In this document: positions 8,573-36,698 of the stretch, piece after piece
How the letters are laid out: each line of letters begins with the position of its first letter
Numbering within the stretch: the stretch's first letter is position 1
Assembly: GCF_013122565.1 (NCBI RefSeq)
Contig: NZ_CP053258.1
Direction: 5' to 3' (one strand)
Source: Escherichia coli
GTDB taxonomy: Bacteria; Pseudomonadota; Gammaproteobacteria; Enterobacterales; Enterobacteriaceae
Length of the DNA: 64,000 nt
The notes under the pieces: model-generated
Told to the model about the DNA's origin: nothing
Seen by the model: only the letters and a program-made list of their open reading frames with translations
Database searches by the model: none
Translations under genes and position numbers: made by a program

Positions 8573-8645
8573 TTTTTCATCTCCCTAAATTCGTGAATAA
8601 CTGCAGCTAACTGCGAGCCTACGGGCTCGCAGGGACAACTCTGGA

Positions 8646-9152: not shown

Positions 9153-9186
9153 ACTATAGACTTCACTTTTTTAGGAGAAATATATT

Positions 9187-9693: not shown

Positions 9694-9711
9694 TTCTTTA
9701 GAGGAGGAATT

Positions 9712-10602: not shown

Positions 10603-10692
10603 TTATCTTCTGGTATTTAGCTATCTCTCATAAATTTTAATGGCCGCAGAGATATCCTAAGCTCTAGCCACTGAAAATACATTTATATTTCG

Positions 10693-10727
10693 AAGCCCGC
10701 GATATTATAAGCGGGCTTTTATTTTAA
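10693..10727 (+). terminator. Rho-independent terminator after the Mn-catalase gene
   Basis: AAGCCCGC-gatattataa-GCGGGCTT followed by TTATTTT. Confidence 0.6.
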
Positions 10728-11050
10728 CCTTCTGGTATTACAGGCCACTCAATATCCGGTGCTACTGATGGCTCAACACGATTCAACAACATCCGATATG
10801 TCTTCCATGCGGCCATTCAACATTTCGCAGAAATGCAACTAAGAGACATTACTGAATCAAAAATTTATTCAGCAATGCAGAAAATGACGAACCGGCGTCA
10901 TGAGGAAAACTGGAAACTCAGGGCAGAAGCATGCAGAAAAAAGGGAAACCTGTTCCAGAATACACGCCAAACCCAGCGTCTGTTGCAACGAAGGCTACGC
11001 ATCTTTCATTTATAAAAGCCCTGCTAAGAGCCGCAGAGCGTGAATAGAAA

Positions 11051-11718
11051 ATGCTGGATAAGGCACCAATTATTAAAGTGCCTCAACCGAAGAATAAACG
11101 GATCCGCTGGCTGGAACCTCATGAAGCACAAAGGCTGATTGATGAATGTCCGGATCCATTAAAGTCTGTTGTTGAATTTGCACTGGCAACAGGTTTAAGA
11201 CGCTCGAACATCATCAACCTTGAATGGCAACAAATAGACATGCAGCGCCGGGTGGCCTGGATAAACCCGGAAGAGAGTAAATCAAACTGCGCGATTTGCG
11301 TTGCGCTGAATGATACTGCATGTCGAGTATTGAAAAAACAAATCGGGAATCACACCGTTGGGTATTTGTGTAAAAGGAAAGCTGTACAAAACCAGACGGA
11401 ACGAAAGCGCCAACAGTCAGGAAGATGCAGTATGACGCAAACACAGCCAGGAAAACGGCGCTGAGACGAGCTGGTATTGATGATTTCAGATTTCACGACT
11501 TGAGACACACCTGGGCAAGTTGGCTGGTTCAAGCCGGAGTCCCGTTGTCAGTGTTACAGGAAATGGGAGGCTGGGAGTCTATCGAAATGGTTCGACAATA
11601 TGCTCACCTCGCACCTAATCACCTTACCGAACACGCACGGCAAATAGACTCGATCCTAAACCCATCGGTCCCAAATTTGTCCCAGTCAAAAAATAAGGAA
11701 GGTACTAACGATGTGTAA
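11051..11718 (+). pseudogene. Tyrosine-recombinase (phage integrase) remnant: catalytic C-terminal half only, with a frameshift near 11425-11464
   Basis: Two overlapping frames (11051..11464 and 11425..11718) together give an integrase catalytic domain ([19 protein letters not shown]...; [39 protein letters not shown]); N-terminal ~200 aa absent; ends 15 bp from the tRNA 3' end in convergent orientation. Confidence 0.7.
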
Positions 11719-11732
11719 CTTATTGATTTAAA

Positions 11733-11808
11733 TGGTGCCGATAAGAGGAGTCGAACCTCCGACCTTCGCATTACGAATGCGCTGCTCTACCAACTGAGCT
11801 ATATCGGC
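11733..11808 (-). tRNA. thrW: tRNA-Thr (anticodon CGU)
   Basis: Minus-strand sequence GCCGATATAGCTCAGTTGGTAGAGCAGCGCATTCGTAATGCGAAGGTCGGAGGTTCGACTCCTCTTATCGGCACCA folds as a canonical cloverleaf with CGT anticodon and CCA end. Confidence 0.95.
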
Positions 11809-11922
11809 CCTGAAAGGACATGTTCACGAACGTGAATCACGGTGGACAAGGTTAAAACTAACCGGGCGATGCGTCAATGGCCTTGTGAATCAAATGGCTA
11901 CTTTTGCATCACCCGGTTTTAT

Positions 11923-13176
11923 TTACGCACGAATGGTGTAATCACCAATGCCGATCCACTTGTAAGTGGTCAGTGCTTCCAGCCCCATTGGGCCACGCGC
12001 GTGGAGTTTTTGTGTGCTTACCGCCACTTCCGCACCCAGACCAAACTGGCCGCCGTCGGTAAAACGCGTAGAGGCGTTAACGTAAACAGCGGACGAATCC
12101 ACTTCGTTAACAAAACGCTGGGCGTTGCGCATATCGCGGGTCAGGATCGCATCGGAGTGTTGTGTGCCGTGTTCACGAATATGGGCGATGGCATCGTCAA
12201 GATCGCTGACGATTTTGACGTTCAAATCTAATGACAGAAACTCATCGTCATACTCTTCGGCTTTAACCGCCACCACCTTCGCGGGGCCTGTCTGCAACTG
12301 CGCCAGCGCAGCAGCATCTGCGTGTAACGTCACGCCGCTTTCCGCCATTTGCTTGCTTAATGCGGGCAGGAAGCTATCGGCGATGTTTTTATTTACCAGC
12401 AACGTTTCTACCGTATTACATGTGCTCGGACGCTGAGTTTTCGCGTTGACGATCACTTTTAATGCTTCAGCGATCTCTGCACTTTCATCAACGTAAATAT
12501 GGCATACGCCTATACCACCAGTGATCACCGGGATTGTCGACTGTTCGCGGCACAGTTTATGCAAACCAGCGCCACCACGCGGGATCAGCATGTCGATGTA
12601 TTTATCCATACGCAGCATTTCACTGACCAGCGCACGGTCAGGATTATCAATCGCCTGCACGGCACCCGCCGGTAAGCCACAGGATTTCAGGGCGTCCTGA
12701 ATCACCGCCACCGTTGCCGCGTTAGTGCGACAGGTTTCTTTGCCACCACGCAGGATCACCGCATTACCGGTTTTCAGGCACAGCGAAGCGACATCAACCG
12801 TCACGTTCGGGCGCGCTTCATAAATCACGCCAATAACCCCCAGCGGTACGCGACGACGCTCAAGACGCAGGCCGCTGTCCAGTACGCCGCCATCGATTAC
12901 CTGCCCCACCGGATCGGCGAGATTGCACACCTGGCGCACATCGTCGGCAATGCCTTTCAGCCGTGCGGGCGTCAGTGCCAGACGGTCAAGCATCGCTTCG
13001 CTAAGGCCATTGGCACGCGCGTCAGCAACATCCTGGGCGTTAGCGTTGAGGATGATTTCGCTTTGTGCTTCCAGTTCATCGGCGATTTTTTCCAGCACGC
13101 GATTTTTTTCGCGGCTGGAGAGTTGCGCTAATTTATACGAGGCTTGCTTCGCGGCAATGCCCATTTGTTCCAGCAT
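11923..13176 (-). CDS. proA: Gamma-glutamyl phosphate reductase
   Basis: 417 aa full-length match to ProA by recollection ([38 protein letters not shown]...); 11-bp spacing from proB. Confidence 0.95.
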
Positions 13177-13187
13177 CAGCCTGCTCC

Positions 13188-14291
13188 TTAACGGGTAATC
13201 ATGTCATCACGGTGAACGGCAACCGGGCCGTATTCATATCCCAGTATTGCATCAATTTCTTGCGAGTGGTGTCCGGCAATACGGCGTAATGCATCGCTGT
13301 TGTAACGACTGACGCCGTGAGCGATATCGCGACCTTCGAGGTTGCAAATGCGGATGACTTCACCACGCGAGAAATTGCCAGTCACGCTTTTAATGCCTTT
13401 CGGCAACAGGGAGCTGCCGCGTTCAAGAATGGCGGCAGTTGCCCCTTCATCTACCGTGATTTCACCCGCCGGCGGCGCACCGAAAATCCAGCGTTTACGG
13501 TTTTCAAGCGGAGTCGCCTGGGCATGGAACAACGTACCGACGGAAATGCCTTCCATCACATCACCAATAACGCCCGGCTTGCTGCCCGCGGCAATAATGG
13601 TGTCGATACCCGCACGGCAAGCCACGTCTGCGGCCTGCAATTTGGTACTCATGCCGCCAGTTCCGAGGCCTGAAACGCTGTCACCGGCAATCGCGCGCAG
13701 TGCGTCATCAATGCCGTAAACATCTTTAATCAGTTCTGCCTGCGGATTGCTGCGCGGGTCAGCGGTATACAAACCTTTTTGATCGGTCAGCAGCAACAGT
13801 TTATCGGCACCCGCCAGAATCGCCGCCAGCGCAGAAAGGTTATCGTTATCGCCGACCTTAATCTCTGCCGTAGCGACAGCATCGTTCTCATTGATTACCG
13901 GAACGATATTGTTATCGAGCAACGCTCGCAGGGTGTCGCGGGCGTTCAGGAAGCGTTCACGGTCTTCCATATCAGCACGGGTCAGCAGCATCTGCCCGAC
14001 GTGAATGCCATAAATCGAAAACAGCTGTTCCCACAGTTGAATCAGTCGACTCTGCCCTACCGCCGCCAGCAGTTGTTTCGAGGCGATAGTCGCTGGCAGT
14101 TCCGGGTAACCCAGGTGCTCACGTCCGGCGGCGATCGCGCCCGACGTCACAATAACAATCCGATGCCCGGCGGCATGTAACTGCGCGCACTGGCGAACAA
14201 GTTCAACGATATGGGCACGGTTCAGGCGGCGCGATCCGCCTGTTAGCACACTGGTGCCGAGTTTTACCACCAGCGTCTGGCTGTCACTCAT
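13188..14291 (-). CDS. proB: Glutamate 5-kinase
   Basis: 367 aa starting [19 protein letters not shown]; the ORF-track start (14378) is an upstream in-frame extension. Confidence 0.95.
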
Positions 14292-14479
14292 GATTCTCTG
14301 CCATTCAATTTTAGGAAAAATGATATCAAACGAACGTTTTAGCAGGACTGTCGTCGGTTGCCAACCATCTGCGAGCAAAGCATGGCGTTTTGTTGCGCGG
14401 GATCAGCAAGCGTAGCGGCAGTTGTTTACGCTTTTATTACAGATTTAATAAATTACCACATTTTCAGAATATTATTAAT

Positions 14480-14498
14480 CTGTAATATATCTTTAACA
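14480..14498 (+). promoter_or_regulatory. Pho box (PhoB binding site) upstream of phoE
   Basis: CTGTAATATATCTTTAACA matches the CTGTCATA-type direct-repeat Pho box about 80 bp upstream of the phoE start. Confidence 0.6.
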
Positions 14499-14578
14499 AT
14501 CTCAGGTTAAAAACTTTCCTGTTTTCAACGGGACTCTCCCGCTGAATATTCGCGCGTTAATTAAAATCAGGAATGAAA

Positions 14579-15634
14579 ATGAAAAAGAGCACTCTGGCAT
14601 TAGTGGTGATGGGCATTGTGGCATCTGCATCCATACAGGCCGCAGAAATATATAACAAAGATGGTAATAAACTGGATGTCTATGGCAAAGTTAAAGCCAT
14701 GCATTATATGAGTGATAATGACAGTAAAGATGGCGACCAGAGTTATATCCGTTTTGGTTTTAAAGGTGAAACACAAATTAACGATCAACTGACTGGTTAT
14801 GGTAGGTGGGAAGCAGAGTTTGCCGGTAATAAAGCGGAGAGTGATACTGCACAGCAAAAAACACGTCTCGCTTTTGCCGGATTGAAATATAAAGATTTGG
14901 GTTCTTTCGATTATGGTCGTAACCTGGGCGCGTTGTATGACGTGGAAGCCTGGACCGATATGTTCCCGGAATTTGGTGGCGACTCCTCCGCACAGACCGA
15001 CAACTTTATGACCAAACGCGCCAGCGGTCTGGCGACGTATCGGAACACCGACTTCTTCGGCGTTATCGATGGCCTGAACTTAACCCTGCAATATCAAGGG
15101 AAAAACGAAAACCGCGACGTTAAAAAGCAAAACGGCGATGGCTTCGGCACGTCATTGACATATGACTTTGGCGGCAGCGATTTCGCCATTAGTGGGGCCT
15201 ATACCAACTCAGATCGCACCAACGAGCAGAACCTGCAAAGCCGTGGCACAGGCAAGCGTGCAGAAGCATGGGCAACAGGTCTGAAATACGATGCCAATAA
15301 TATTTATCTGGCAACTTTCTATTCTGAAACACGCAAAATGACGCCAATAACTGGCGGCTTTGCCAATAAGACACAGAACTTTGAAGCGGTCGCTCAATAC
15401 CAGTTTGACTTTGGTCTGCGTCCATCGCTGGGTTATGTCTTATCGAAAGGGAAAGATATTGAAGGTATCGGTGATGAAGATCTGGTCAATTATATCGATG
15501 TTGGTGCTACGTATTATTTCAACAAAAATATGTCAGCCTTTGTTGATTATAAAATCAACCAACTGGATAGCGATAACAAATTGAATATTAATAATGATGA
15601 TATTGTCGCGGTTGGCATGACCTATCAGTTTTAA
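14579..15634 (+). CDS. phoE: Phosphate-starvation-inducible outer membrane porin PhoE
   Basis: 351 aa with signal peptide [21 protein letters not shown] and porin C-terminal ...VGMTYQF. Confidence 0.95.
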
Positions 15635-15642
15635 TGGATATT

Positions 15643-15663
15643 GCCGGATGTGATGCATCCGGC
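15643..15663. terminator. Hairpin between convergent phoE and crl (likely bidirectional terminator)
   Basis: GCCGGATG-tgatg-CATCCGGC inverted repeat immediately after the phoE stop. Confidence 0.45.
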
Positions 15664-15672
15664 ACATTTCAC

Positions 15673-16131
<459 letters not shown>

Positions 16132-19644: not shown

Positions 19645-19700
19645 TTATTTGATTTGCTGCCGGATGGCGTTCAATCACCTTCCGGCAGTTTCATCCTTCA

Positions 19701-20315
19701 TTATCCTTCGATAAAAGCCATCCCTGTAAATGTCCGTCGCGGGTTGCCACGTTCAATCTGGTGATGGAACATTCGCCGCTGCGATTTCAGCACCGCGCTA
19801 TTCTCCTGTTGCTGTTGTTCCAGCTTCCAGGCAATCAGCAATCGCGCCAGCCGTTTGTTAGCATGCTGGCTGCGCTCTGACTGAACCTTCACGCTAATAC
19901 CGGATGCCAGATGCGTGGCACGTACCGCCGAGTCGGTTTTATTGACATGTTGACCGCCCGGCCCCGACGAACGCAGCGTCTCATACCGGATCGCATCGGA
20001 TTGCCCCTGCTCATCAGCGGTAAAACGCCCAATGCCCAGAAACCAGTTTTTACGCCCGTGATGTGGGCGATACGGGCTCGGGCAAATCCACTGAATAGTG
20101 CCACACCAGCTTTCGCTTAACGCCCATGCGTTGTCGCCATCCAGAGAAATCAGCGCCGAACGCAGCGTGTCAGAGTAGCGGCCTGTTTCTGTTTCCAGCA
20201 CCGTTACCGCGACGTCTTGTCGGGCAGTTTCTTTAATTAGCCTGTCCAGCGCCTTTTTCACTGCGAGACAACATTCTTCCGGCCCCTGCGCTGAGGAGAG
20301 TTGTAGCAAGATCAT
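19701..20315 (-). CDS. prfH: Peptide chain release factor homologue PrfH (apparently full length, ~204 aa)
   Basis: Starts [19 protein letters not shown]...; contains GGQ motif ([17 protein letters not shown]); ATG overlaps the stop of the upstream RtcB-like gene (ATGA). ORF-track start at 20399 is an upstream extension. Confidence 0.85.
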
Positions 20316-21463
20316 CCTTTTTTCCCTCCACTGTTTTTGAGCGTTAGCACCGGACGCAGTCGCGCGACAGGAATAATTAACCCAGCCTGCACCAGACATT
20401 GCACCACGCTTTCAGCCGATTTATAAGCTTGTGGCGCTTCTTCAAAGATGAGTTGTTTATCGCGACAAATTACCCGGCTGCCAAGTTCAGTACGCGAGAG
20501 TTGCGTCACCGTGTATTTCGCTGCCAGACGCCCTTTACAATCGGTGCGCCCCCATTTACGCCCAGCCCCATGCGCCAGCGAATGCAATGTTTCCTCACTC
20601 CTGACGGGCTGAACCAGCCAGGAGTAATCACCGCGTGAACCGGGAATAACCACCAGACCACAGTCATCAGGCGTGGCACCTTTACGATGTAAGACCCCTT
20701 GTTGATCACCGATTCGACACGCGCTAACAAAGTTATGCGCCACATCCAGAACCGGACTTCCGGTGGCCTTAACCTGTTGCATTATGCGCAAAGCGATCAG
20801 CTGGCGATTAATACGCGCAAACGCCAGCGCATCGTCATGTTCCGCAATATAACGTAGCGCGTCGTCACTGCCTTCAGGCAAACCATGATGCGAAAACGAG
20901 GCAATATGCCGCTGTAAAATAGACTGCCCTAAACCACGCGAGCCGCTATGAACCAACAGTTGCAGATGCTGCGCATCCAGACCTGCCAGTGCAAACAGTT
21001 CAGCGTTGATGATTTGATCAACTTGTTGCAGTTCAGCGAAATGATTGCCGCCACCGATAGAGCCAAGCGAGCTGCGCCACGGATGCTGTGCAAATGCTGA
21101 CGGCAGGTTTTCCTCCAGCCAGCTTTCTTCAGCAACGTCATCCAAAGCTGATAATCGCTTTTCAAACTTATCGGCGTTGTATTTGCGAGCGAGAATATCT
21201 GTTTGCCATAGCGCCATGCCGCAGCCGATATCATTGCCGACCAGTGCCGGGTAAAAACGACCAACTGAGAAGAACGCTGCGCCAATCGGGTAGCCGCGTC
21301 CGGGATGTAAATCTGGCATCCCCACTACGCGCTGCATGTTGGGTAAATTTGCCGTGGTGTGTAATTGTTGGATCGCTAAACTCTCGATCCACAGGTCATC
21401 AGATGCGATGGTAAATACCGCATCGGATAAGGGACGAATATATTTGCCCATGTACCATTCCAT
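20312..21463 (-). CDS. RtcB-family RNA ligase paralogue (RtcB2-like), partner of PrfH
   Basis: 383 aa with RtcB hallmarks ([36 protein letters not shown]...HRKGA); translationally coupled to prfH. Confidence 0.85.
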
Positions 21464-21768
21464 TTATACTCGTCATACTTCAAGTTGCATGTACTGCGAC
21501 TGCGTTCGTTCACCCCAGTCACTTACTTTAGTAAGCTCCTGGCGATTCACTCGCTTGTCACCTTCCTGCAACTCGAATTATTTAGAGTATATAAATATTA
21601 AAAATCAGGAAATGGCAGACGAATCCAGGGCAAGAAAAAAGAATTAATCCTGGAAAGGTCTGCAAAGAGTCATTGATAAAGGATTTGTCATGATTTACCT
21701 CCTTGCAGTTTGTGGAATCAGAAAACGCGCACATACTAGGCGGGCGTTATTTTCATTGCAAGCTGGAT

Positions 21769-22221
21769 TTAATGTTGCGGTTTATATCGCATATAAAAAT
21801 TAGTAAACCACGCACCCCGGCATTCAACGCGCTGCTGCTTAACTGTCTGAAAACCATAACGTTCAAAAAAGGGTTTTGCGGTTATGCTGGCGTCCACCGT
21901 AAGTTCGGATTCAGACTTAATCCAAGGTTTTAACAAAGCACTGGCAACCCCACGGCGGGTGTATTCAGGGTCAACAAATAACATATCGATATAATGTTCA
22001 ATGCGGGAAATAAAACCAACCGGTTGTGCATTAATGACTGCAACCCGCACTTGTGATTTCGCGAGTTTCTCCTTCCAGCGAGATTCGTCAATCTGCGCCC
22101 AGACTGCAATTTGTTGTGGTGAATAATGCTCACTGGCTGTCATCGTAACCGCTCTAATGAAAATAGCGCATAGTTGCTGAAAATCGCCAGGCTGATAGTT
22201 TCTTATTTGTATGTTATTCAT
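21769..22221 (-). CDS. yafP: GNAT-family acetyltransferase YafP
   Basis: 150 aa, [25 protein letters not shown]...; start overlaps dinB stop by 4 nt. Confidence 0.9.
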
Positions 22222-23273
22222 AATCCCAGCACCAGTTGTCTTTCCATTTGAGGGTCAAGCAACGTCACATGCAGCCCCACCAGTCGCACACCGCGCCCGC
22301 CGCGGCGTTCATCCCAGGTTTTACGCGCGGTGGCGATTAGATCAGCTTTATTCAGCCGCGGCCAGACGTGCTCCTGGGTGGTTTGCTGAAAATCGTCGAA
22401 CTTTAATTTCACCCCCTGGCGAGCAATCAGTAAATCAGGTTTTACCTTTGCCAGACGGCGTTCAAGTTCCGGATACAGCCGCTCGATAATCGCTTCACAT
22501 TCAGACCAGTGATGAATATCTTCCGCCATCGTGCGTTCCACGCCGACGGATTTTCGCAACCGTTCGCTGTTAACATCGCGTTCGTCAATCCCCTGACTAC
22601 GCTCCCACAAAATGCGGCCAAATTTGCCAAAACGTTTAAGCAACGTCACCAGATCACACTTTTGTACATCACCGCAGGTCCGCAGCCCCATCGCTTCCAG
22701 TTTTGCCGCCGAGACTTTGCCGACGCCGGGGATTTTTGCCAGTGGTAAGGTTTGTAAAAATGCCGGAACTTCTGCCGGCGTAATCACAAACTGGCCGTTG
22801 GGTTTATTCATGTCGGAGGCGATTTTGGCGAGAAACTTTACTGGTGCCACGCCCGCAGACGCCGTCAGTTGCAGCTCGCTGAAAATCGTCTGGCGGATTT
22901 CCTGGGCGATGAGGGTCGCAGAACCGTGGCAATGGACGCTATCGGTGACATCGAGATAAGCCTCATCCAGTGACAACGGTTCAATACGCGAGGTGTAACG
23001 CGAGAAGATTTCACGGATATGATTTGAGGCTTCTTTGTAGGCGTCAAAGCGCCCCGGAAGCAAGGTGAGATGTGGGCATAATTTGAGCGCCATCCCAGTA
23101 GGCATAGCGCTACGTACGCCAAATTTACGCGCGGGATAATTGGCGGTGCTGATCACCCCCCGACGTTCGCGGCTGCCGCCAATAGCAATAGGGATATCGC
23201 GCAGGGCGGGATTGTCGCGCATCTCCACTGCGGCGAAAAAGCAGTCCATATCCACATGAATGATTTTACGCAT
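22218..23273 (-). CDS. dinB: DNA polymerase IV (Y-family translesion polymerase)
   Basis: 351 aa, [34 protein letters not shown].... Confidence 0.95.
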
Positions 23274-23343: not shown

Positions 23344-23979
23344 TTAACGCGTTCGCTGCGAAAGCACCTGCTGCTTATCCAGCTTTTGCACCAGTGGCTG
23401 CACCACTTTATCCCCATGCTGACCAAAGTATTGATACAGCGTATCGGACGCACTTTTGGTCAGCACCATAATCTCAATACGCCGATTGCCCGCACTTTGC
23501 GGATTTTTCGCGTCCAGCAGCATCTGGTCCGCCATTGCGCTTACCTGCATCACTTTATCTTCCGGCATTCCTGCCTCTTCCAACACCCGACGAGCCGAAA
23601 GCGCGCGGTCACCCGAAAGGTTCCAGTTGTTGTAGATATTGTTTTTGTAAGCCATCGCATCGGTATGCCCGGTAATAATAATTTTGTTATCGAGCGAGTC
23701 GAACACTGGCGCGAGCTCCACCAGCAAAGTTTTAAAGAACGGCATAATCTGCGCGCTGCCGCGTTCGAACATATTGCGGTTCTGGTCGTCTTTAATCAGC
23801 ACGCGTAATCCCTGCGGGACAATCTCCATCTCCAGATTCGCTTCCATATGCGCATCACGGGCAATGGTGTTGATACTGGTTGCCAGCTCGCCAAGCTCGG
23901 TGGCGGATTTCTTCTTCAGCAGCGCCGTATTCTCGTTGACGTCGCGCGCTTTTTTCTCCGTCTCTTCCGGCACCGCCAC
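23344..23979 (-). pseudogene. lafU: lafU' remnant: MotB-like flagellar motor protein with OmpA-like C-terminal domain, 5'-truncated (Flag-2 deletion scar); upstream boundary approximate
   Basis: C-terminal OmpA/MotB peptidoglycan-binding domain (ITGHTDAMAYKNNIYNNWNLSGDRALSARRVLEEAGM...NRRIEIMVL); N-terminal part of the 296-aa ORF lacks a MotB-like TM segment. Confidence 0.65.
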
Positions 23980-24073
23980 GGTGGCAGGTTTTGGCGGATG
24001 AGACGGGCTGATTTTATTTAACGGCGACAACCCGCCACCATTGAAAATCGACTGCCCGTGCAGCGCGGCGATA

Positions 24074-25813
24074 ATGCTTTCACGCTCGGATTTACTGACG
24101 CTGTTGACAATCAACTTTATTGTCGTCACCAAAGGGGCCGAGCGTATTTCCGAGGTTTCCGCCCGCTTTACCCTGGACGCGATGCCCGGCAAACAGATGG
24201 CGATTGACGCCGACCTTAACGCCGGGTTGATCAACCAGGCGCAGGCGCAAACCCGGCGTAAAGATGTTGCCAGCGAGGCCGATTTCTACGGCGCGATGGA
24301 CGGGGCATCGAAGTTTGTGCGCGGGGACGCCATCGCCGGGATGATGATTCTGGCGATCAACCTGATCGGCGGCGTCTGTATCGGCATCTTCAAATACAAC
24401 CTGAGCGCCGACGCTGCCTTCCAGCAGTATGTGCTGATGACCATCGGCGACGGCCTGGTGGCGCAGATCCCTTCCCTGCTGCTCTCCACCGCGGCCGCGA
24501 TTATCGTCACCCGCGTCAGCGATAACGGCGATATCGCCCATGACGTGCGCCACCAGCTGCTGGCAAGCCCGTCGGTGCTCTACACCGCCACCGGGATCAT
24601 GTTCGTGCTGGCGGTGGTGCCGGGGATGCCGCATCTGCCGTTTTTGCTGTTCAGCGCCCTGCTTGGCTTTACCAGCTGGCGGATGAGCAAACGCCCGCAG
24701 GCGGCGGAGGCGGAAGAGAAAAGCCTCGAAACGCTGACCCGCACTATCACCGAAACCAGCGAGCAACAGGTCAGTTGGGAAACCATTCCACTGATCGAGC
24801 CCATCAGCTTAAGCCTTGGCTACAAGCTGGTGGCGCTGGTGGACAAAGCACAGGGTAACCCGCTCACCCAACGTATTCGCGGCGTGCGGCAGGTGATTTC
24901 TGACGGCAACGGCGTGCTGCTGCCGGAGATCCGCATTCGGGAAAACTTCCGCCTTAAGCCGAGCCAGTACGCCATTTTCATCAACGGCATTAAGGCTGAT
25001 GAAGCAGATATTCCGGCGGATAAACTGATGGCCCTGCCCTCCAGCGAAACCTACGGCGAGATTGACGGCGTGCTGGGGAACGACCCGGCGTACGGGATGC
25101 CGGTGACCTGGATCCAGCCCGCGCAGAAAGCGAAGGCGCTGAATATGGGGTATCAGGTAATCGACAGCGCCAGCGTGATTGCCACCCATGTGAACAAGAT
25201 TGTGCGCAGCTATATTCCTGATTTATTTAATTATGATGACATCACGCAGTTGCATAACCGTTTGTCGTCGATGGCACCGCGCCTGGCGGAGGATTTAAGC
25301 GCGGCGCTCAATTACAGCCAGTTGCTGAAAGTGTACCGGGCGCTGCTGACCGAAGGCGTTTCCCTGCGCGATATTGTCACCATCGCCACCGTGCTGGTCG
25401 CCAGTAGCACAGTGACCAAAGATCATATTCTGCTGGCGGCCGATGTGCGCCTGGCGCTGCGGCGCAGCATTACCCATTCGTTCGTTCGCAAGCAGGAGCT
25501 GGCGGTGTATACGCTGAATAATGAGCTGGAAAATCTGCTGACCAACGTGGTGAATCAGGCGCAACAGGGCGGCAAAGTGATGCTCGACAGCGTGCCGGTG
25601 GACCCGAATATGCTCAACCAGTTCCAGAGTACGATGCCGCAGGTAAAAGAGCAGATGAAAGCGGCGGGGAAAGACCCGGTGCTGCTGGTGCCGCCGCAGT
25701 TGCGCCCTTTGCTGGCGCGCTACGCAAGGTTGTTTGCGCCGGGGCTGCATGTGCTGTCGTATAACGAAGTGCCGGATGAGCTTGAGTTGAAGATTATGGG
25801 GGCGTTGAGTTGA
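24074..25813 (+). pseudogene. lfhA: lfhA' remnant: FlhA-like flagellar export protein lacking about 120 N-terminal residues (Flag-2 deletion scar)
   Basis: Homology to FlhA begins mid-protein (IVVTKGAERISEVSARFTLDAMPGKQMAIDADLNAGLI...); divergently oriented and overlapping the lafU' ORF. Confidence 0.7.
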
Positions 25814-25849
25814 TGGCTTTTAAGAAACGCAATACGATGACATCAATTT

Positions 25850-26248
25850 ATGACGTCAGGGATTGATAAGATGATGAAAACGCGTTCATTAATATCTCAA
25901 GCATCGAACATTATCACAATTAAAGGTCAACCAGCCGCAGTGACATTTGAAGCCGATATCAACGCATTTCGCGGCAAGTTCCTCAATGTAAACGGTTATT
26001 GTGACTTTGTAGCCACAAGTATTGAGGCATTATATCGTGAAGGCGAAAGCGCGCTGGATGAGTGGATGGCGGATTGTGAAGAGGACGGTATTGCCCCTTT
26101 TCGTGAAGAAGAAGAGCAAAAACGCCTGACGCTTCGTGTTCCTCATCACATTGATTCGCGGCTGACCATCGTCGCCAGACAACATTCCATTTCAAAAAAC
26201 CAGCTCATTATTGATGTCTTAGAACGTGAGTTTTCAGCCCAGATGTAA
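25850..26248 (+). CDS. HicB-like antitoxin-type protein with C-terminal ribbon-helix-helix DNA-binding domain (orphan; no hicA seen)
   Basis: 132 aa; N-terminal HicB-like segment (AAVTFEADINAFRGKFLNVNGYCDFVATSIEALYREGESALDEWMADCEEDGIAPF), C-terminal RHH-like KRLTLRVPHHIDSRLTIVARQHSISKNQLIIDVLEREF. Confidence 0.45.
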   Translation: MTSGIDKMMKTRSLISQASNIITIKGQPAAVTFEADINAFRGKFLNVNGYCDFVATSIEALYREGESALDEWMADCEEDGIAPFREEEEQKRLTLRVPHHIDSRLTIVARQHSISKNQLIIDVLEREFSAQM

Positions 26249-26250
26249 AC

Positions 26251-26282
26251 AGGTCGGATGCCGCGTGGCATCCGACCTTTTG
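26251..26282. terminator. Rho-independent terminator / REP-like hairpin between the HicB-like gene and yafL
   Basis: AGGTCGGATGCC-gcgt-GGCATCCGACCT followed by TTTT. Confidence 0.6.
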
Positions 26283-26304
26283 CCAGTTCGTCAATATTAC
26301 CCAT

Positions 26305-27054
26305 TTACAAAATCGTCTCTTCCGTCAAAATCCGCCGCGCGCCTAAAAAATGATCCTGCCAGAAAGGTTCAGCTAATCGGCTTATCCGAATGGTTTCGCC
26401 GGTACGTGGTGACTCGATAAACTGACCGTCTCCCAGATACACCCCCATATGATCGGCTATCTCGCGGCTGTGAATATGGAAAAACAGCAAATCTCCCCGG
26501 CGCAGGTCGTTATTCGCCACAATCGTTGCCCGACGGTAGTGATACATCTCATTAGCCGTGCGCGGGAGTTTCGCCTCGAGGATCTTGTTGTAGGCATAAA
26601 AAACCAACCCGCTACAGTCGAAGCCTTGATCGGGCCGTGTGCCGCCCCAGACGTAAGGCTTGCCAAGCTGCTGCTCCAGGCGGTGGATCGCCACTTCGGT
26701 GATGTTATGCAGGTGATCGCTGCTTAAAAAGTGGTTGTTTTCCGCCAGCGCCTGCCAGCGTCTGTCACTCGCCTTGAGCGGTGCAGGAAACCATTCTGGA
26801 TGCTGTTTTATCTGCTCCCGGTTGTGCTGGCGCAGCGCCCTTCTGCTTTCGGCATTGCCTTCCACAATATAGCTGGCCTGTTTTTTCAGATGGGTTTGGT
26901 ACTGTTTTAATAACCGCGCACGGTTTTGCATCCGCTGGCGGGCGGCGTAGCTGAAAGAGATGTGTGATGTGGTGGCGCTGGCAAATGAAGAAAACGGCAA
27001 GCAAAGCAACAGTAATCCCGACAACACAAAGGATGGAATCGACGGCAAGGACAT
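26305..27054 (-). CDS. yafL: NlpC/P60-family peptidoglycan endopeptidase lipoprotein YafL
   Basis: 249 aa from MSLPSIPSFVLSGLLLLCLPF...; NlpC/P60 motifs (GFDCSGLVFYAY, H...GVYLGDGQFIESP). Confidence 0.9.
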   Translation of the reverse strand: MSLPSIPSFVLSGLLLLCLPFSSFASATTSHISFSYAARQRMQNRARLLKQYQTHLKKQASYIVEGNAESRRALRQHNREQIKQHPEWFPAPLKASDRRWQALAENNHFLSSDHLHNITEVAIHRLEQQLGKPYVWGGTRPDQGFDCSGLVFYAYNKILEAKLPRTANEMYHYRRATIVANNDLRRGDLLFFHIHSREIADHMGVYLGDGQFIESPRTGETIRISRLAEPFWQDHFLGARRILTEETIL

Positions 27055-27231
27055 ACTCAATAATGGCTGGTCATGCTTTAATGTTGCAGTGTATCCCGGA
27101 TCGTTTCTGAACAAACTTAATAAACCATTATTATAAAATTAACAGATATATTTCAGTGGATTATGTAAATACATCAGTTTATTAAATTGCTCATGAATTG
27201 CCGCTGTTGCTCAATTGAGCTACAATTCAAG

Positions 27232-27247
27232 CTGAATATATATACAG
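27232..27247. promoter_or_regulatory. LexA (SOS) box upstream of dinJ-yafQ
   Basis: CTGAATATATATACAG, a near-consensus CTG-N10-CAG box about 17 bp upstream of the dinJ ATG. Confidence 0.8.
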
Positions 27248-27263
27248 CACAGGAGATACCCCA

Positions 27264-27524
27264 ATGGCTGCTAACGCATTTGTTCGCGCCCGAATCGATG
27301 AGGATTTGAAGAATCAGGCGGCGGACGTACTGGCCGGGATGGGGCTGACCATCTCTGACCTGGTTCGCATAACCCTCACAAAGGTCGCGCGTGAAAAGGC
27401 ATTGCCGTTTGATTTACGCGAGCCTAATCAATTAACTATTCAATCAATCAAAAACAGCGAAGCTGGCGTTGGTGTTCATAAGGCCAAAGACGCCGATGAT
27501 TTATTTGATAAATTAGGAATTTAA
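27264..27524 (+). CDS. dinJ: Antitoxin DinJ (RHH family)
   Basis: 86 aa, MAANAFVRARIDEDLKNQAADVLAGMGLTISDLVRITL.... Confidence 0.95.
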   Translation: MAANAFVRARIDEDLKNQAADVLAGMGLTISDLVRITLTKVAREKALPFDLREPNQLTIQSIKNSEAGVGVHKAKDADDLFDKLGI

Positions 27525-27526
27525 AT

Positions 27527-27805
27527 ATGATTCAAAGGGATATTGAATACTCGGGACAATTTTCAAAGGATGTAAAACTTGCACAAAAGCGTCATAAGGA
27601 TATGAATAAATTGAAATATCTTATGACGCTTCTTATCAATAATACTTTACCGCTTCCAGCTGTTTATAAAGACCACCCGCTGCAAGGTTCATGGAAAGGT
27701 TATCGCGATGCTCATGTCGAACCGGACTGGATCCTGATTTACAAACTTACCGATAAACTTTTACGATTTGAGAGAACTGGAACTCACGCGGCGCTCTTTG
27801 GGTAA
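27527..27805 (+). CDS. yafQ: Toxin YafQ (RelE-family ribosome-dependent mRNA interferase)
   Basis: 92 aa, MIQRDIEYSGQFSKDVKLAQKRHKDMNKLKYLM...; 2-nt spacing after dinJ. Confidence 0.95.
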   Translation: MIQRDIEYSGQFSKDVKLAQKRHKDMNKLKYLMTLLINNTLPLPAVYKDHPLQGSWKGYRDAHVEPDWILIYKLTDKLLRFERTGTHAALFG

Positions 27806-27960
27806 AGCCCGCTTCCGATGAAATTTGTAAACCCTGCGCCGACAGGCTTGCGTAAAACTCTTTTGGTGATAATGTGAGCCTTCCAAATCCAGACTATTCC
27901 GATTTGGGATCTATTTTGCCGTCCTGGCGTGTGTAACCGTTTTATCAAGGAATAAGCAGT

Positions 27961-28701
27961 ATGCGTAAAATCGCATTAATTCTTGCGATGTTGTTGATCC
28001 CGTGCGTTTCGTTTGCCGGTTTGCTGGGCAGCAGTAGCTCGACCACGCCAGTGAGCAAAGAGTATAAGCAGCAGTTGATGGGATCCCCTGTCTACATCCA
28101 GATCTTCAAGGAAGAACGTACGCTCGATCTCTACGTCAAAATGGGCGAGCAATATCAACTGCTCGACAGCTATAAAATCTGTAAATATTCCGGCGGCTTA
28201 GGGCCAAAACAGCGTCAGGGCGATTTCAAAAGCCCGGAAGGGTTTTATAGCGTCCAGCGTAATCAGTTAAAACCAGACAGCCGTTACTACAAAGCGATTA
28301 ATATTGGTTTCCCCAATGCCTATGACCGTGCGCATGGTTATGAAGGGAAATACCTGATGATCCACGGCGATTGTGTTTCCATCGGCTGCTACGCGATGAC
28401 CAATCAGGGTATTGATGAGATCTTCCAGTTCGTTACTGGTGCGCTGGTGTTTGGTCAGTCAAGTGTGCAGGTGAGTATTTACCCGTTCCGCATGACCGAC
28501 GCCAACATGCAGCGCCATAAATATTCCAACTTTAAGGACTTCTGGGAGCAACTGAAGCCGGGTTATGACTACTTTGAGCAAACCCGTAAGCCACCGACCG
28601 TTTCTGTGGTCAATGGTCGTTACGTGGTCAGCAAGCCGTTAAGCCACGAAGTTGTGCAGCCACAACTGGCATCAAACTACACGCTCCCCGAGGCAAAATA
28701 A
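27961..28701 (+). CDS. yafK: L,D-transpeptidase-like periplasmic protein YafK
   Basis: 246 aa with signal peptide; YkuD-like domain ([21 protein letters not shown]). Confidence 0.9.
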
Positions 28702-29439
28702 GCGCCATTCGCCTGGCATAATCTTTTGCCAGGTTTCATTGCCCGTCAGCGGCTGTGTCGCAATCACCGTGACCACATCATTCGGTGTGGTCTGCGAGCT
28801 GAAGTCGATTTCCACATCCTGATCCAGCAACGTTGCCACGCCAAACGGTGCGCGGCGGGTGATCCAGTGCAGATTGGTCGAGCAATACGCCATTACATAG
28901 CGCCCATCCGAAAGCAGCATGTTGAAAACGCCCTTCTGCCGCAGTTCGTCCGCCAGTGAAGCGATATATTTAAACACTGCTGCCATGTTGCCCGGCGTGC
29001 GCGGGTAACGCTGCGTTAATTTATGCAGCAGCCAGCAGAAGGCTTTTTCGCTGTCGGTTTCACCGACCGGGCGGAAGTTGCCGGTTTCCAGTGATTTGTA
29101 GCCCGTCAGTTGTCCGTTATGGGCATAAGTCCAGTTACGCCCCCATAACTCGCGGGTAAATGGGTGAGTATTTTCCAGCGCCACCTCGCCCCGATTAGCC
29201 TGGCGAATATGAGCCACCACCGAACAGGATTTTATCGGGTAGTCCTGGACAAGTTTGGCGATGGGGGAATTAAAGCTGGGTTGTGGATCTTTAAATGTGC
29301 GACAGCCTTTACCTTCGTAAAAGGTAATGCCCCAGCCATCTTTATGTGGCCCGGTTCCACCACCACGCTGTACAAGTCCGGTGAAACTAAAGCAGATATC
29401 GGTAGGGACGTTGGCGCTCATCCCGAGCAATTCGCACAT
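28672..29439 (-). CDS. yafJ: Class II glutamine amidotransferase-like protein YafJ
   Basis: 255 aa starting [19 protein letters not shown] (N-terminal Cys nucleophile); 3' ends of yafK and yafJ overlap convergently by 30 nt. Confidence 0.9.
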
Positions 29440-29501
29440 GGGTAACCTCCACAACAGCGGGAGCGCATGGCCCCCGGCGAAGATTGATTTAAGAATTTTC
29501 A

Positions 29502-29637
29502 GGTCGGATGCGGCGTGAACGCATTATTCGGCCTTCGGTTCGCGTACAGATTTGTAGGCATGATAAGACGCGTCAGCGTCGCATCAGGCATCAGCGCACA
29601 AATGCTGGATGCGGCGTAAACGCCTTATCCGGCCTAC
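29502..29637. repeat. REP/BIME cluster (repetitive extragenic palindromes) between yafJ and gmhA
   Basis: Three REP-like units: GGTCGGATGCGGCGTGAACGC..., inverted CGTCAGCGTCGCATCAGGCA, and GCTGGATGCGGCGTAAACGCCTTATCCGGCCTAC. Confidence 0.8.
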
Positions 29638-29644
29638 GCCAGAC

Positions 29645-30223
29645 TTACTTAACCATCTCTTTTTCAATTAACTGGATCAGGATATGGATCACTTTAATGT
29701 GGATCTCCTGAATGCGGTCGGCATAACCAAAGTGCGGAACGCGAATTTCGATATCCGCCGTGCCAGCCATTTTGCCGCCGTCTTTACCGGTCAGGGTGAT
29801 CACTTTCATCCCCTTCTCACGCGCCGCTGCGATCGCTTTGATCACGTTTGCAGAGTTACCGGAAGTGGAGATCCCCAGCAGTACATCGCCTTCGCGACCT
29901 ACCGCTTCAACGTAACGGGAGAAAATATCATTGAAACCGAAATCATTACCGACGCAGGAAATATGACTAACGTCAGAAATAGCAATCGCCGGGTAGCCCG
30001 GACGGTTTTCACGGTAGCGACCGGTCAACTCTTCGGCAAAGTGCATGGCGTCGCAATGGGAGCCGCCGTTGCCGCAGGAAAGCACTTTACCACCGGCTTT
30101 AAAGCTGTCTGCTAACAGGACCGCCGCGCGCTGAATGGCGTGAATATTGGCGTCATCTTTTAAAAAGTTAGCCAGCGTTTCCGCCGCTTCGTTCAGTTCG
30201 TTACGAATAAGATCCTGGTACAT
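29645..30223 (-). CDS. gmhA: Phosphoheptose (sedoheptulose-7-phosphate) isomerase
   Basis: 192 aa from [21 protein letters not shown]...; SIS domain. ORF-track start is an upstream extension. Confidence 0.95.
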
Positions 30224-30462
30224 GAGGATATCCTTCAGCATAAATGTAATAGACAAAATGCAGTGTACCGGATACCGCCAAAAGCGAGAAGTACGGGCAG
30301 GTGCTATGACCAGGACTTTTTGACCTGAAGTGCGGATAAAAACAGCAACAATGTGAGCTTTGTTGTAATTATATTGTAAACACATTGCTAAATGTTTTTA
30401 CATCCACTACAACCATATCATCACAAGTGGTCAGACCTCCTACAAGTAAGGGGCTTTTCGTT

Positions 30463-32907
30463 ATGATGATTTTGAGTATTCTCGCTACGGTTGTCCTGCT
30501 CGGCGCGTTGTTCTATCACCGCGTGAGCTTATTTATCAGCAGTCTGATTTTGCTCGCCTGGACAGCCGCCCTCGGCGTTGCTGGTCTGTGGTCGGCGTGG
30601 GTACTGGTGCCTCTGGCCATTATCCTCGTGCCATTTAACTTTGCGCCTATGCGTAAGTCGATGATTTCCGCGCCGGTATTTCGCGGTTTCCGTAAGGTGA
30701 TGCCGCCGATGTCGCGCACTGAGAAAGAAGCGATTGATGCGGGCACCACCTGGTGGGAGGGCGACTTGTTCCAGGGCAAGCCGGACTGGAAAAAGCTGCA
30801 TAACTATCCGCAGCCGCGCCTGACGGCTGAAGAGCAAGCGTTTCTCGACGGCCCGGTAGAAGAAGCCTGCCGGATGGCGAATGATTTCCAGATCACCCAT
30901 GAACTGGCGGATCTGCCGCCAGAGTTGTGGGCGTACCTTAAAGAGCATCGCTTCTTCGCGATGATCATCAAAAAAGAGTACGGCGGACTGGAGTTCTCGG
31001 CTTATGCCCAGTCTCGTGTGCTGCAAAAACTCTCCGGCGTGAGCGGGATCCTGGCGATTACCGTCGGCGTGCCGAACTCATTAGGCCCGGGCGAGCTACT
31101 GCAACATTACGGCACTGATGAGCAGAAAAATCACTATCTGCCGCGTCTGGCGCGTGGTCAGGAGATCCCTTGCTTTGCACTGACCAGCCCGGAAGCGGGT
31201 TCCGATGCGGGCGCGATTCCGGACAACGGGATTGTCTGCATGGGTGAATGGCAGGGCCAGCAGGTGCTGGGGATGCGTCTGACCTGGAACAAACGCTACA
31301 TTACGCTGGCACCGATTGCGACTGTGCTTGGGCTGGCGTTTAAACTCTCCGACCCGGAAAAATTGCTGGGTGGTGCAGAAGATTTAGGTATTACCTGTGC
31401 GCTGATCCCGACCACCACGCCGGGCGTGGAAATTGGTCGTCGCCACTTCCCGCTGAATGTGCCGTTCCAGAACGGACCGACGCGCGGTAAAGATGTCTTC
31501 GTACCGATCGACTACATTATCGGCGGGCCGAAAATGGCCGGGCAAGGCTGGCGGATGCTGGTGGAGTGCCTCTCGGTGGGCCGCGGCATCACCCTGCCTT
31601 CCAACTCAACCGGCGGCGTGAAATCGGTAGCGCTGGCAACCGGCGCGTATGCGCACATTCGCCGTCAGTTCAAAATCTCTATTGGTAAGATGGAAGGGAT
31701 TGAAGAACCGCTGGCGCGTATTGCCGGTAATGCCTATGTGATGGATGCTGCGGCGTCGCTGATTACCTACGGCATTATGCTCGGCGAAAAACCTGCCGTG
31801 CTGTCGGCTATCGTTAAGTATCACTGTACCCACCGCGGGCAGCAGTCGATTATTGATGCGATGGATATCACTGGTGGTAAAGGCATTATGCTCGGGCAAA
31901 GCAACTTCCTGGCCCGTGCTTACCAGGGCGCACCGATTGCCATCACCGTTGAAGGGGCTAACATTCTGACCCGCAGCATGATGATCTTCGGCCAGGGGGC
32001 GATTCGTTGCCATCCGTACGTGCTGGAAGAGATGGAAGCGGCGAAGAACAATGACGTCAACGCGTTCGATAAACTGTTGTTCAAACATATCGGTCACGTC
32101 GGTAGCAACAAAGTTCGCAGCTTCTGGCTGGGCCTGACGCGCGGTTTAACCAGCAGCACGCCAACCGGCGATGCCACTAAACGCTACTATCAGCACCTGA
32201 ACCGCCTGAGCGCCAACCTCGCCCTGCTTTCTGATGTCTCGATGGCAGTGCTGGGCGGCAGCCTGAAACGTCGTGAGCGTATCTCGGCACGTCTGGGTGA
32301 TATTTTAAGCCAGCTTTACCTCGCCTCTGCCGTTCTGAAGCGTTATGACGACGAAGGCCGTAATGAAGCCGATCTGCCGCTGGTGCACTGGGGCGTACAG
32401 GATGCGCTGTATCAGGCAGAACAGGCGATGGACGATTTACTGCAAAACTTCCCGAACCGCGTGGTTGCCGGGCTGCTGAATGTGGTGATCTTCCCGACCG
32501 GACGTCATTATCTGGCACCGTCTGACAAGCTGGATCATAAAGTGGCGAAGATTTTACAAGTGCCGAATGCCACCCGTTCACGTATTGGTCGCGGTCAGTA
32601 CCTGACGCCAAGCGAGCATAACCCGGTTGGTTTACTGGAAGAGGCGCTGGTGGATGTAATTGCCGCCGACCCAATTCATCAGCGGATCTGTAAAGAGCTG
32701 GGTAAAAACCTGCCGTTTACCCGTCTGGATGAACTGGCGCACAACGCGCTGGCGAAGGGGCTGATTGATAAAGATGAAGCCGCTATTCTGGTGAAAGCTG
32801 AAGAAAGCCGTCTGCGCAGTATTAACGTTGATGACTTTGATCCGGAAGAGCTGGCGACGAAGCCGGTAAAGTTGCCGGAGAAAGTGCGGAAAGTTGAAGC
32901 CGCGTAA
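30463..32907 (+). CDS. fadE: Acyl-CoA dehydrogenase FadE
   Basis: 814 aa from [24 protein letters not shown]...; N-terminal membrane segment and ACAD domains. Confidence 0.95.
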
Positions 32908-32913
32908 TTGAAT

Positions 32914-32940
32914 AACGGAGCCGAAAGGCTCCGTTTCTTT
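32914..32940. terminator. Bidirectional Rho-independent terminator between fadE and ivy
   Basis: AACGGAGCC-gaaa-GGCTCCGTT followed by TCTTT. Confidence 0.65.
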
Positions 32941-32949
32941 ATCGGCTAA

Positions 32950-36682: not shown

Positions 36683-36698
36683 ATATCATTTCCTGTCT

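Follow-up and report, generated by a model that had tools for sequence, protein, structure and literature searches.

An intact rtcB2-prfH operon for ribosome rescue and repair in an Escherichia coli chromosome, with a candidate RNA switch in its leader

How do cells with broken ribosomes make the proteins that repair ribosomes? The question is raised by a locus in a 64,000-nucleotide stretch of Escherichia coli DNA (contig NZ_CP053258.1 of RefSeq assembly GCF_013122565.1), hereafter the window, in which the gene for an RNA ligase of the RtcB family, rtcB2, is followed by prfH, the gene for peptide chain release factor H. The best explanation of the locus is an RtcB2-PrfH operon for ribosome rescue and repair that is intact in this chromosome, a reading to which we assign a probability of about 0.88. 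The function of the pair is already known, and the window holds one more intact copy of it. Upstream of rtcB2 lies a short open reading frame (ORF) that may belong to an RNA switch controlling the pair.

The damage that the pair deals with is a cut in the decoding centre: colicin E3 or CdiA-CT(ECL) cleaves the 16S rRNA between A1493 and G1494. The characterised E. coli PrfH (EcPrfH) recognises the new 3′-terminal phosphate of A1493, and its GGQ motif hydrolyses the peptidyl-tRNA, after which the 70S ribosome can be taken apart; peptide release occurs only on cut ribosomes, and the protein is absent from the A site of intact ones (PMC9304027). RtcB2 is a GTP/Mn-dependent 3′-phosphate/5′-OH ligase that uses a histidine nucleophile and re-seals the 16S rRNA in the 30S subunit. 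The E. coli enzyme repairs E3-cut 30S subunits but not cut tRNA, while RtcB1 does the opposite, and rescue in vivo requires Q122 of PrfH and His294 of RtcB2 (PMC9304027). Knock-outs in strain ATCC 25922 turn sensitive to colicin E3, a K-12 derivative with a truncated operon is likewise sensitive and is rescued by the cloned genes, and the pair does not protect against colicins E5 and D, which cut tRNA (PMC9223846). RtcB2 alone is able to repair both 30S and 70S particles, and PrfH accelerates the repair of translating ribosomes (PMC13166195). Most of this evidence comes from ATCC 25922 (Tian et al., PNAS 2022; Maviza et al., IJMS 2022; RNA Biol 2026). A first-pass annotation of the window, made from its sequence, had taken the pair for a reported rescue and repair module for ribotoxin-damaged 16S rRNA, and these three studies of the E. 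coli orthologues bear it out; protection in the present strain would be expected by extension from them. No family in PADLOC-DB 2.0 matched RtcB2 or PrfH at E <= 0.01, and the pair is a counter-measure against bacterial ribotoxins, not a catalogued anti-phage defence system.

Is the copy in the window whole? Both reading frames run uninterrupted on the minus strand:

20312..21451, minus strand: rtcB2, RNA 3′-phosphate/5′-OH ligase of the PrfH-coupled RtcB2 clade, 379 residues
19701..20315, minus strand: prfH, peptide chain release factor H, 204 residues plus stop, GGQ at 120-122
20312..20315, minus strand: ATGA stop/start overlap, putative translational coupling, junction GGAGGGAAAAAAGGATGATC

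The ORF listing and re-translation gave 0 frameshifts and 0 internal stops, so that the full-length ligase, the PrfH with its GGQ motif and the ATGA overlap between them, all described in the first pass, stand as described. The prfH start codon (ATG, 20315-20313) and the rtcB2 stop codon (TGA, 20314-20312) occupy between them the four shared bases, and an internal GGAGG stands 9 nt upstream of the prfH ATG. Judged by gene coordinates, the same 4-nt overlap is also found in Citrobacter, Salmonella, Klebsiella, Kosakonia and Intestinirhabdus. The prfH frame can be extended to 20399 as its longest ORF, and the conserved start is MILLQL. The rtcB2 frame, in turn, is open over 20312..21463, which gives the 383 residues first reported, but the protein most likely begins at the second ATG, at 21451 (MGKY..., 379 residues), because the NCBIfam model NF007153 aligns only from residue 5 of the longer ORF, because the identical RefSeq protein WP_171459782.1 is 379 residues long, because the catalytic histidine coincides with the published His294 (Tian et al. 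2022) only in the 379-residue numbering, and because other genera keep the initiation-region block GGAWTGGTAYATGGGCAA but not the upstream in-frame ATG. Citrobacter, Phytobacter and Intestinirhabdus lack that upstream ATG and read CAGGAATGGTATATG there.

Both proteins pass curated NCBIfam equivalog cut-offs. RtcB2 reaches 638.4 bits against NF007153 (cut-off 407) and 623.7 bits against TIGR03073, the release-factor-H-coupled RtcB (cut-off 271.8), and it is encoded immediately upstream of prfH in one operon. Its active site is present, with the metal ligands Asp74, Cys77, His137 (with Asn136), His168 and His239 and the GMP-accepting nucleophile His294, and the motifs GNDIGCG, GGGNHF, VHSGSRG, VAHNF and HGAGRK align with those of the Thermus thermophilus and Pyrococcus horikoshii RtcB proteins. 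The metal-binding and nucleophile positions are near-invariant across 83 distant representatives of the family. By sequence search we found no solved structure from the RtcB2 clade, the best matches in the PDB being canonical RtcBs. RtcB1 of the rtcBA operon shares its fold and its chemistry with RtcB2 (PF01139, with a His-GMP intermediate and Mn2+ ligands) and is about 28% identical, but it is a tRNA and RNA repair ligase under sigma-54/RtcR control with RtcA as partner, which repairs tRNA and not E3-cut 30S subunits; the window protein scores with the PrfH-coupled clade (TIGR03073) and not with RtcB1.

PrfH reaches 326.5 bits against TIGR03072 (cut-off 166.65) over residues 2-201 of 204, a full-length family match, and is identical at 199 of 204 residues (97.5%) to chain 8 of PDB 7SA4, the 2.55 Å structure of the complex between PrfH and a ribosome cleaved in its decoding centre (Tian et al. 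2022, PMC9304027). The five substitutions relative to that structure (K20R, T29A, A30T, G104E and V175A) all fall outside the contact residues listed by Tian et al., and those contact residues, A9-P12, R52, S53, R83, H85, H86, R88, K89, N90, R181, H184 and R189, are all identical. The A1493-phosphate pocket, the h18/S12 patch, the C1914 pocket, the C1054 stack, the contacts to H69 and h34 and the GGQ motif are thus kept, and the catalytic Gln122 is present within G120-G121-Q122. The window proteins thus retain all the contact and catalytic residues published for the pair, in agreement with the first-pass assignment. Peptide release restricted to ribosomes cut at A1493/G1494 would be expected of the window PrfH, given a characterised protein that is 97.5% identical.

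The relatives of PrfH help to place it. RF1, RF2 and ArfB have in common with it the GGQ peptidyl-tRNA hydrolase domain, but PrfH scores far under their NCBIfam cut-offs; it is without domain 1 of the release factors, its 204 residues aligning to domains 2-4 of RF2 only, and without the motifs that read stop codons, and it reads damaged rRNA and not mRNA. Another relative is the PrfH-CT subfamily, known from Capnocytophaga gingivalis PrfH (CgPrfH; PDB 9MOR/9MQ4), whose rRNA-recognition and GGQ domains are homologous (E = 1e-38). CgPrfH has 231 residues, carries an extra basic C-terminal tail and also rescues intact non-stop ribosomes (PMC12829566). The window protein aligns end to end with EcPrfH and stops at residue 204 (...GMAFIEG), without the basic tail and the total length of 225-250 residues that mark PrfH-CT. 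The nearest known system is the one studied in ATCC 25922, from the same species, with the same chromosomal locus, gene order and ATGA overlap; sampled members of the E. coli RtcB2 cluster are 94-97% identical to the window RtcB2, with identical catalytic and ribosome-contact residues. The window RtcB2 differs by a rare mosaic patch (W253V, N264C, I268V), and the leader contains a full-length ERIC repeat that some other strains with an intact locus, SMS-3-5 among them, lack; we return to both below.

If the pair is intact here, what has become of it elsewhere? The gene order in the window is frsA-gpt-pepD, facing prfH-rtcB2-yafP-dinB-lafU and an lfhA remnant. In the MG1655 annotation, ykfJ (b0235) and prfH (b0236) are pseudogenes, as the first pass had stated for K-12, and alignment locates the missing stretch:

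20225..21244: missing in K-12 and in strain C, 1,020 bp, with loss of RtcB2 residues 70-379 and PrfH residues 1-30

The K-12 junction reads GACGTCTTGCCGGGTAAAAACG (MG1655 253679-253685), and the corresponding ends in the window read TTGTCGGG and GTGCCGGG, which are imperfect 8-nt direct repeats. The junction falls within a 7-nt TGYCGGG microhomology, which we read as the signature of a deletion by slippage or illegitimate recombination, and the event agrees with the roughly 1-kb deletion of Baranov et al. 2006. At least 80% of the locus is kept in 2,709 of 5,426 complete E. coli genomes, the remainder being deletion classes. Strain PS10-3, which has the closest flanks (99.1%), carries the K-12 junction together with a second deletion of about 170 bp inside prfH (window 19984-20153), a combination that points to stepwise decay. 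Since the pair also lies between dinB and pepD in five other genera, in the order dinB-(yafP)-rtcB2-prfH-pepD (Citrobacter, Salmonella, Intestinirhabdus, Klebsiella and Kosakonia), it is taken to be ancestral in the Enterobacteriaceae, and E. coli strains without it have lost it. The label "accessory" that it had been given is right insofar as the pair is missing from about half of E. coli; it misleads in that the locus is ancestral and its absence is due to deletion, not to gain elsewhere.

What would switch the operon on? The spacer between yafP and rtcB2 is 305 nt long and contains, on the same strand as the pair, a candidate promoter and a short leader ORF:

21733..21761, minus strand: putative sigma-70-like promoter, TTGCAA-17 nt-TAGTAT with a GC-rich discriminator, just after the yafP stop (relaxed scan, consensus match)
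21704-21697, minus strand: leader Shine-Dalgarno (SD) sequence AAGGAGGT, 5 nt before the leader ATG
21691-21644, minus strand: leader ORF of 15 codons, MTNPLSMTLCRPFQD followed by a stop (SD and leader together, 21644..21704)
21663-21649, minus strand: switch segment 1, GCAGACCTTTCCAGG, inside the leader ORF

A default promoter scan gave nothing on the minus strand; the promoter was found by a relaxed scan and cross-genus comparison, TTGCRM-17-TAnTAT standing before the leader also in Citrobacter, Klebsiella, Salmonella, Intestinirhabdus, Providencia and Pseudomonas. A leader with a strong SD was checked by hand in the same six genera and in Kosakonia. We also fetched 80 species loci from gamma- and betaproteobacteria with the RtcB2 protein alone as query, and every one of them (80/80) has a leader candidate of 12-22 codons with a good SD, 108-394 nt upstream of rtcB2; in 79 it is the single candidate, and one locus has two. 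A comparable leader ORF is therefore present in all 87 other rtcB2 loci examined. The N-terminal half of the leader varies freely with the frame intact, and the box TTTGCAGRC is kept but read in different frames by different clades, as Leu-Cys-Arg or as Phe-Ala-Gly, which argues for a constraint on the RNA rather than on the peptide. No Rfam family covers the leader. In K-12 the leader is intact at MG1655 253239-253286, and the promoter is also kept. As a separate observation, codon 14 of the leader is changed from CAG to TAG (window 21652-21650) in strain 1105, leaving a leader peptide of 13 residues. The sequence AACGCCCGCC...GCGCGTT after yafP was considered as a yafP terminator and rejected, its fold being no better than shuffles (z = -0.17) and overlapping the conserved promoter spacer and -10 element.

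A leader of this kind has been described in Pseudomonas aeruginosa, and by sequence we take the E. coli leader to be homologous to PA5471.1, which precedes armZ-PA5470 (Morita et al. 2006, 2009). The two operons are built alike, with a short leader ORF behind a strong SD (PA5471.1), an RtcB2-family gene (armZ, PA5471) and prfH (PA5470), and with a TTTGCAGG box inside the leader ORF that is complementary to a downstream GGCCTGCC. Leaders such as MQALITLCRSRLA, with the same boxes, occur in the sampled Pseudomonas loci. According to the reviews PMC3516279 and PMC12057347, PA5471 (ArmZ) is RtcB-like and PA5470 is a prfH, the 13-codon PA5471.1 couples expression to ribosome stalling, premature stops or deletions in it make expression constitutive, and many inhibitors of the ribosome elicit a response from it. 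Morita and co-workers (2006, cited by PMC3516279) had already described K-12 ykfJ as a truncated homologue of PA5471 that is linked to a release-factor gene and can be induced by 4-azaleucine. The two systems also differ. ArmZ has a second role as MexZ anti-repressor with no counterpart in E. coli, and a review of 2025 describes the leader mechanism as unique to MexXY. In the library searched we found no literature joining ArmZ or PA5471.1 with RtcB2, and in two E. coli RtcB2-PrfH papers a term search found neither a leader nor Pseudomonas mentioned, and no account of a promoter belonging to the operon or of its regulation.

The complementary boxes suggest how a leader could act on the gene behind it. 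Two further segments enter into the pairing:

21608..21633, minus strand: switch segment 2, TTGCCCTGGATTCGTCTGCCATTTCC, able to pair with the leader ORF (helix P1) or with the rtcB2 start region (helices P2 and P3)
21444..21461, minus strand: switch segment 3, the rtcB2 initiation region GGAATGGTACATGGGCAA (SD, start codon, codons 2-3), with the conserved block GGAWTGGTAYATGGGCAA

Block GGAWTGGTAYATGGGCAA is conserved across genera and shows compensatory changes against segment 2. Covariation was read on a 37-sequence alignment, and as the sequences are related, its statistics are indicative and shuffles overstate their significance. RNAalifold on the plain MAFFT alignment recovered P1 alone, the leader box paired with the downstream GRCCTGC, with GC/AU and CG/UA exchanges, and not P2 or P3; the latter two were tested by swapping partners between species and by counting pairs in fixed columns. 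Counted in this way, P1 is paired in 95% of cells and P2 in 80.5%, as against 12-39% for slid registers, and 23 cells are changed on both sides, compared with 7.0 ± 2.2 in shuffles. P2 joins CCATTTC, just after P1, to the rtcB2 SD GGAATGG. With its own partner it has an energy of -9.27 kcal/mol, compared with -7.84 ± 0.30 kcal/mol for swapped partners, and 0 of 10,000 permutations reach the native value; compensatory pairs include CCAATTC/GGATTGG, CCAATAC/GTATTGG and CCGTTCCAA/TTGGAAAGG. P3 joins TTGCCC to GGGCAA, which comprises the final base of the start codon and the five bases after it, and 1 of 10,000 permutations reaches its native energy. In Hafnia and Serratia silvae, where codon 2 of RtcB2 has changed from GGC to AGC, the P3 partner has changed from TTGCCC to TTGCTC or TTGCTA. 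P1 encloses the 5′ strand of P3, so that the two helices cross and do not coexist in a nested fold. When the leader stop region is blocked in silico, which mimics a terminating ribosome, P1 is gone and the fold shifts to pairing at the start site. Covariation thus supports a leader sequence that would pair with the downstream segment as an alternative to the structure that blocks the start. Strain C has GTTTGC in place of GTCTGC in segment 2, a change that weakens P1.

How such a switch would work can be set out in a few steps. The operon would be transcribed from its own promoter as one mRNA carrying the 15-codon leader, and both proteins would be made by coupled translation. In the OFF state, healthy ribosomes would read through the leader and leave segment 1 single-stranded, and segment 2, through the elements CCATTTCC and TTGCCC, would mask the rtcB2 SD and first codons (P2 and P3). 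In the ON state, ribosomes stalled at or near the leader start, or otherwise impaired, would let segment 1 pair with segment 2 (P1) and so free the rtcB2 start. Because E3-cleaved ribosomes pile up at start codons in vitro, the leader would then be a sensor of damage. By analogy with Pseudomonas, we predict that expression of the operon in E. coli is stress-inducible. That the leader and the three helices may form a built-in sensor of damaged ribosomes, through which the repair enzymes would be made by the remaining healthy ribosomes when they are needed, is a proposal whose odds we judge to be even; in the library searched we found no statement of it.

Perhaps, instead, the operon is mainly a general response to translation stress, for example to ribosomes stalled by antibiotics, with colicin E3 repair as one use among several. 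The homologous PA5471.1 answers to many inhibitors, as described above, and the 4-azaleucine induction of ykfJ (PMC3516279) fits the same picture, as does the reported ability of P. aeruginosa PA5470 (PrfH) to counter stalling by the macrolide azithromycin, next to the anti-repressor role of ArmZ; one PrfH subfamily, moreover, rescues intact stalled ribosomes (PMC12829566). What makes this explanation unlikely for E. coli is the specificity of the proteins themselves. E. coli PrfH does not release peptides from intact ribosomes and is not found in their A site (PMC9304027), the dual-activity subfamily needs the basic C-terminal tail that the 204-residue window PrfH does not have, the pair does not protect against colicins E5 and D (PMC9223846), and MexZ and MexXY are partners specific to Pseudomonas. 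We therefore keep to an intact rescue-and-repair operon aimed at cut ribosomes.

Several observations, however, weigh against an operon that is both intact and controlled as proposed. Which state is ON and which is OFF has been adopted from the genetics of Pseudomonas. The Pseudomonas model involves transcription termination in a spacer of about 250 nt, whereas the E. coli spacer, about 70 nt without ERIC, has no recognisable intrinsic terminator and looks more like start-site sequestration. A simple scan of the minus strand at 21452-21644 found no intrinsic terminator, and the U-rich tract is part of the P2 loop instead of following a stem; unlike the transcription attenuation of Pseudomonas, control in E. 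coli may therefore be translational. A third point concerns the repeat in the leader:

21469..21592, minus strand: full-length ERIC (IRU) repeat of 124 nt, in the P2 loop between the anti-SD and the rtcB2 SD, forming a long hairpin

Its core AAGTAAGTGACTGGGGTGA lies at 21528-21510, and it gives a full-length, sub-threshold match to the Rfam family V_AS5 (Vibrio RNA AS5; E = 1e-6), which suggests that this family may be ERIC-like. The repeat folds on itself (z = -6.3) and for that reason would be tolerated inside the P2 loop. Yet with ERIC included, the minimum-free-energy fold keeps P2, the helix between anti-SD and SD, beside P1, whether the leader is modelled as free or with a ribosome stalled at its AUG. 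If ERIC lets P2 coexist with P1 in this manner, induction may be blunted in this strain. The locus varies in this respect: 1,651 of 5,426 genomes, K-12 and O157:H7 among them, carry the full-length repeat here, strain C has a half-length copy, and SMS-3-5, L013 (the GTDB representative of E. coli) and APEC O1 (phylogroup B2) have none.

The last of these points concerns the rtcB2 allele, which is rare, with one genome on record and three UniRef entries (its sequence is that of WP_171459782.1, and RefSeq and GenBank already contain both exact proteins). Its W253V change lies two residues ahead of the invariant HRKGA motif. Position 253 is Trp in 120 of 121 close homologues (at least 59% identity), and among the 83 distant representatives it is Trp, Phe or Tyr in 68 and Leu, Val or Cys in 10, Val itself in 2; canonical RtcBs have Leu or Ile at the equivalent position. 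The window protein thus has Val where an aromatic residue is typical of the clade, although this is not a published defining feature, and it is the only conserved position at which the allele departs. The Val codon differs from the Trp codon at all three bases. Over the whole locus no complete E. coli genome exceeds 95.9% identity, whereas in the flanks identity rises to 99.1%; the differences concentrate at 20600-20800. Around them, 20560-20830 (271 nt, rtcB2 codons ~208-297) is at most 94.1% identical, and mostly 80-90%, to 2,713 E. coli genomes. Codons 279-290 are common to the SMS-3-5 allele class, and codons 251-268, which hold W253V, N264C and I268V, are changed against both compared E. 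coli alleles (1105 and SMS-3-5). Over codons 236-310, 14 codons differ from strain 1105 synonymously and 9 non-synonymously, and this excess of synonymous changes argues for a selected, imported allele rather than for decay. The 18-codon micro-patch 251-268 has the look of a short tract acquired by gene conversion from an allele outside the sample. Import of the patch from another genus was considered and set aside, Val253 occurring in 0 of 121 homologues and codons 251-268 having no source among the compared sequences.

From the allele and the repeat follows a second alternative, which we regard as improbable: the genes may be intact but the module weak or silent, either from impairment of RtcB2 by W253V or from stabilisation by ERIC of the structure that hides the start, with a sensitivity like that of K-12 as the outcome. 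The near-invariant Trp253, the three base changes within so short a patch, the divergence of the surrounding 271 nt and the anti-SD:SD helix held in both the free and the stalled-at-AUG states all speak for it, and W253V, as far as sequence can tell, is the main reason for caution about RtcB2 activity in this strain. Against this, Leu or Ile serves at the position in canonical RtcBs, distant RtcB2 relatives tolerate Leu, Val and Cys, the mostly synonymous changes indicate purifying selection and not decay, and K-12, which shares the same ERIC with O157:H7 and the other genomes counted above, has a ykfJ still reported to be inducible (PMC3516279).

That the upstream ORF and helices do not regulate rtcB2 at all, the region being a chance ORF together with conserved promoter or untranslated sequence, or the pairing serving mRNA stability only, deserves very little credence: short ORFs behind an SD turn up often in random intergenic DNA, P1 alone emerged from RNAalifold on the plain alignment and related sequences inflate the shuffle statistics, but a leader candidate with a good SD stands in 80 of 80 loci, alone in 79, and varies at its N-terminus without losing the frame, compensatory changes occur in all three helices, down to the change of RtcB2 codon 2 from GGC to AGC with TTGCCC to TTGCTC, and the homologous P. 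aeruginosa element is regulatory by experiment (PMC3516279, PMC12057347).

In practical terms, the pair may help to mark strains that are likely to tolerate colicin E3 and ribotoxins of the CdiA-CT(ECL) type. The Pseudomonas field treats the armZ leader as peculiar to MexXY control, whereas the comparison suggests one shared and ancient leader-based switch. If the leader is a sensor of damaged ribosomes, antibiotic sensing by PA5471.1 and ArmZ in P. aeruginosa would be a derived use of an ancestral RtcB2-PrfH damage sensor, one that spans the gamma- and betaproteobacteria and survives as a relic in K-12. The question with which we began is thereby made testable, even in K-12, which keeps the promoter and the leader.

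One further feature borders the operon on the other side:

19656..19689, both strands: perfect 8-bp inverted repeat CTGCCGGA...TCCGGCAG, between the convergent pepD and prfH

It folds on both strands (z = -4.4 and -5.4) and is likely a two-way terminator, judging by its structure and position; a simple terminator scan did not call it.

Some observations on the neighbourhood may be added. The toxin-antitoxin pair yafN-yafO is absent at 22218-22224, where the dinB stop and the yafP start overlap directly, as they do in PS10-3 and Klebsiella spallanzanii; in K-12, strain 1105 and SMS-3-5, yafN-yafO lies between dinB and yafP. At 23344-25813 there is a remnant of the Flag-2 lateral flagella, consisting of lafU and an N-terminally truncated lfhA/flhA-like ORF, as in K-12, and with the pair intact the strain thus has the Flag-2 deletion but not the rtcB2-prfH deletion. 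Positions 1-16000 of the window hold fdeC, a site-specific integrase, proA, proB and phoE; at least 80% of this part is covered in only 2 of 5,426 genomes, at 96.4% identity, so that either the arrangement here is uncommon or the lineage is divergent. For 25000-45000, no single piece of a complete E. coli genome reaches 80% coverage. The part from about 25000 to 64000 holds fadE, yafV and yafJ, followed by RHS-repeat genes, a type VI secretion cluster (tssK, tssL, tssM, vgrG) and Rhs toxins, so that weapons of interbacterial competition lie within about 25-40 kb of an operon that repairs toxin damage.

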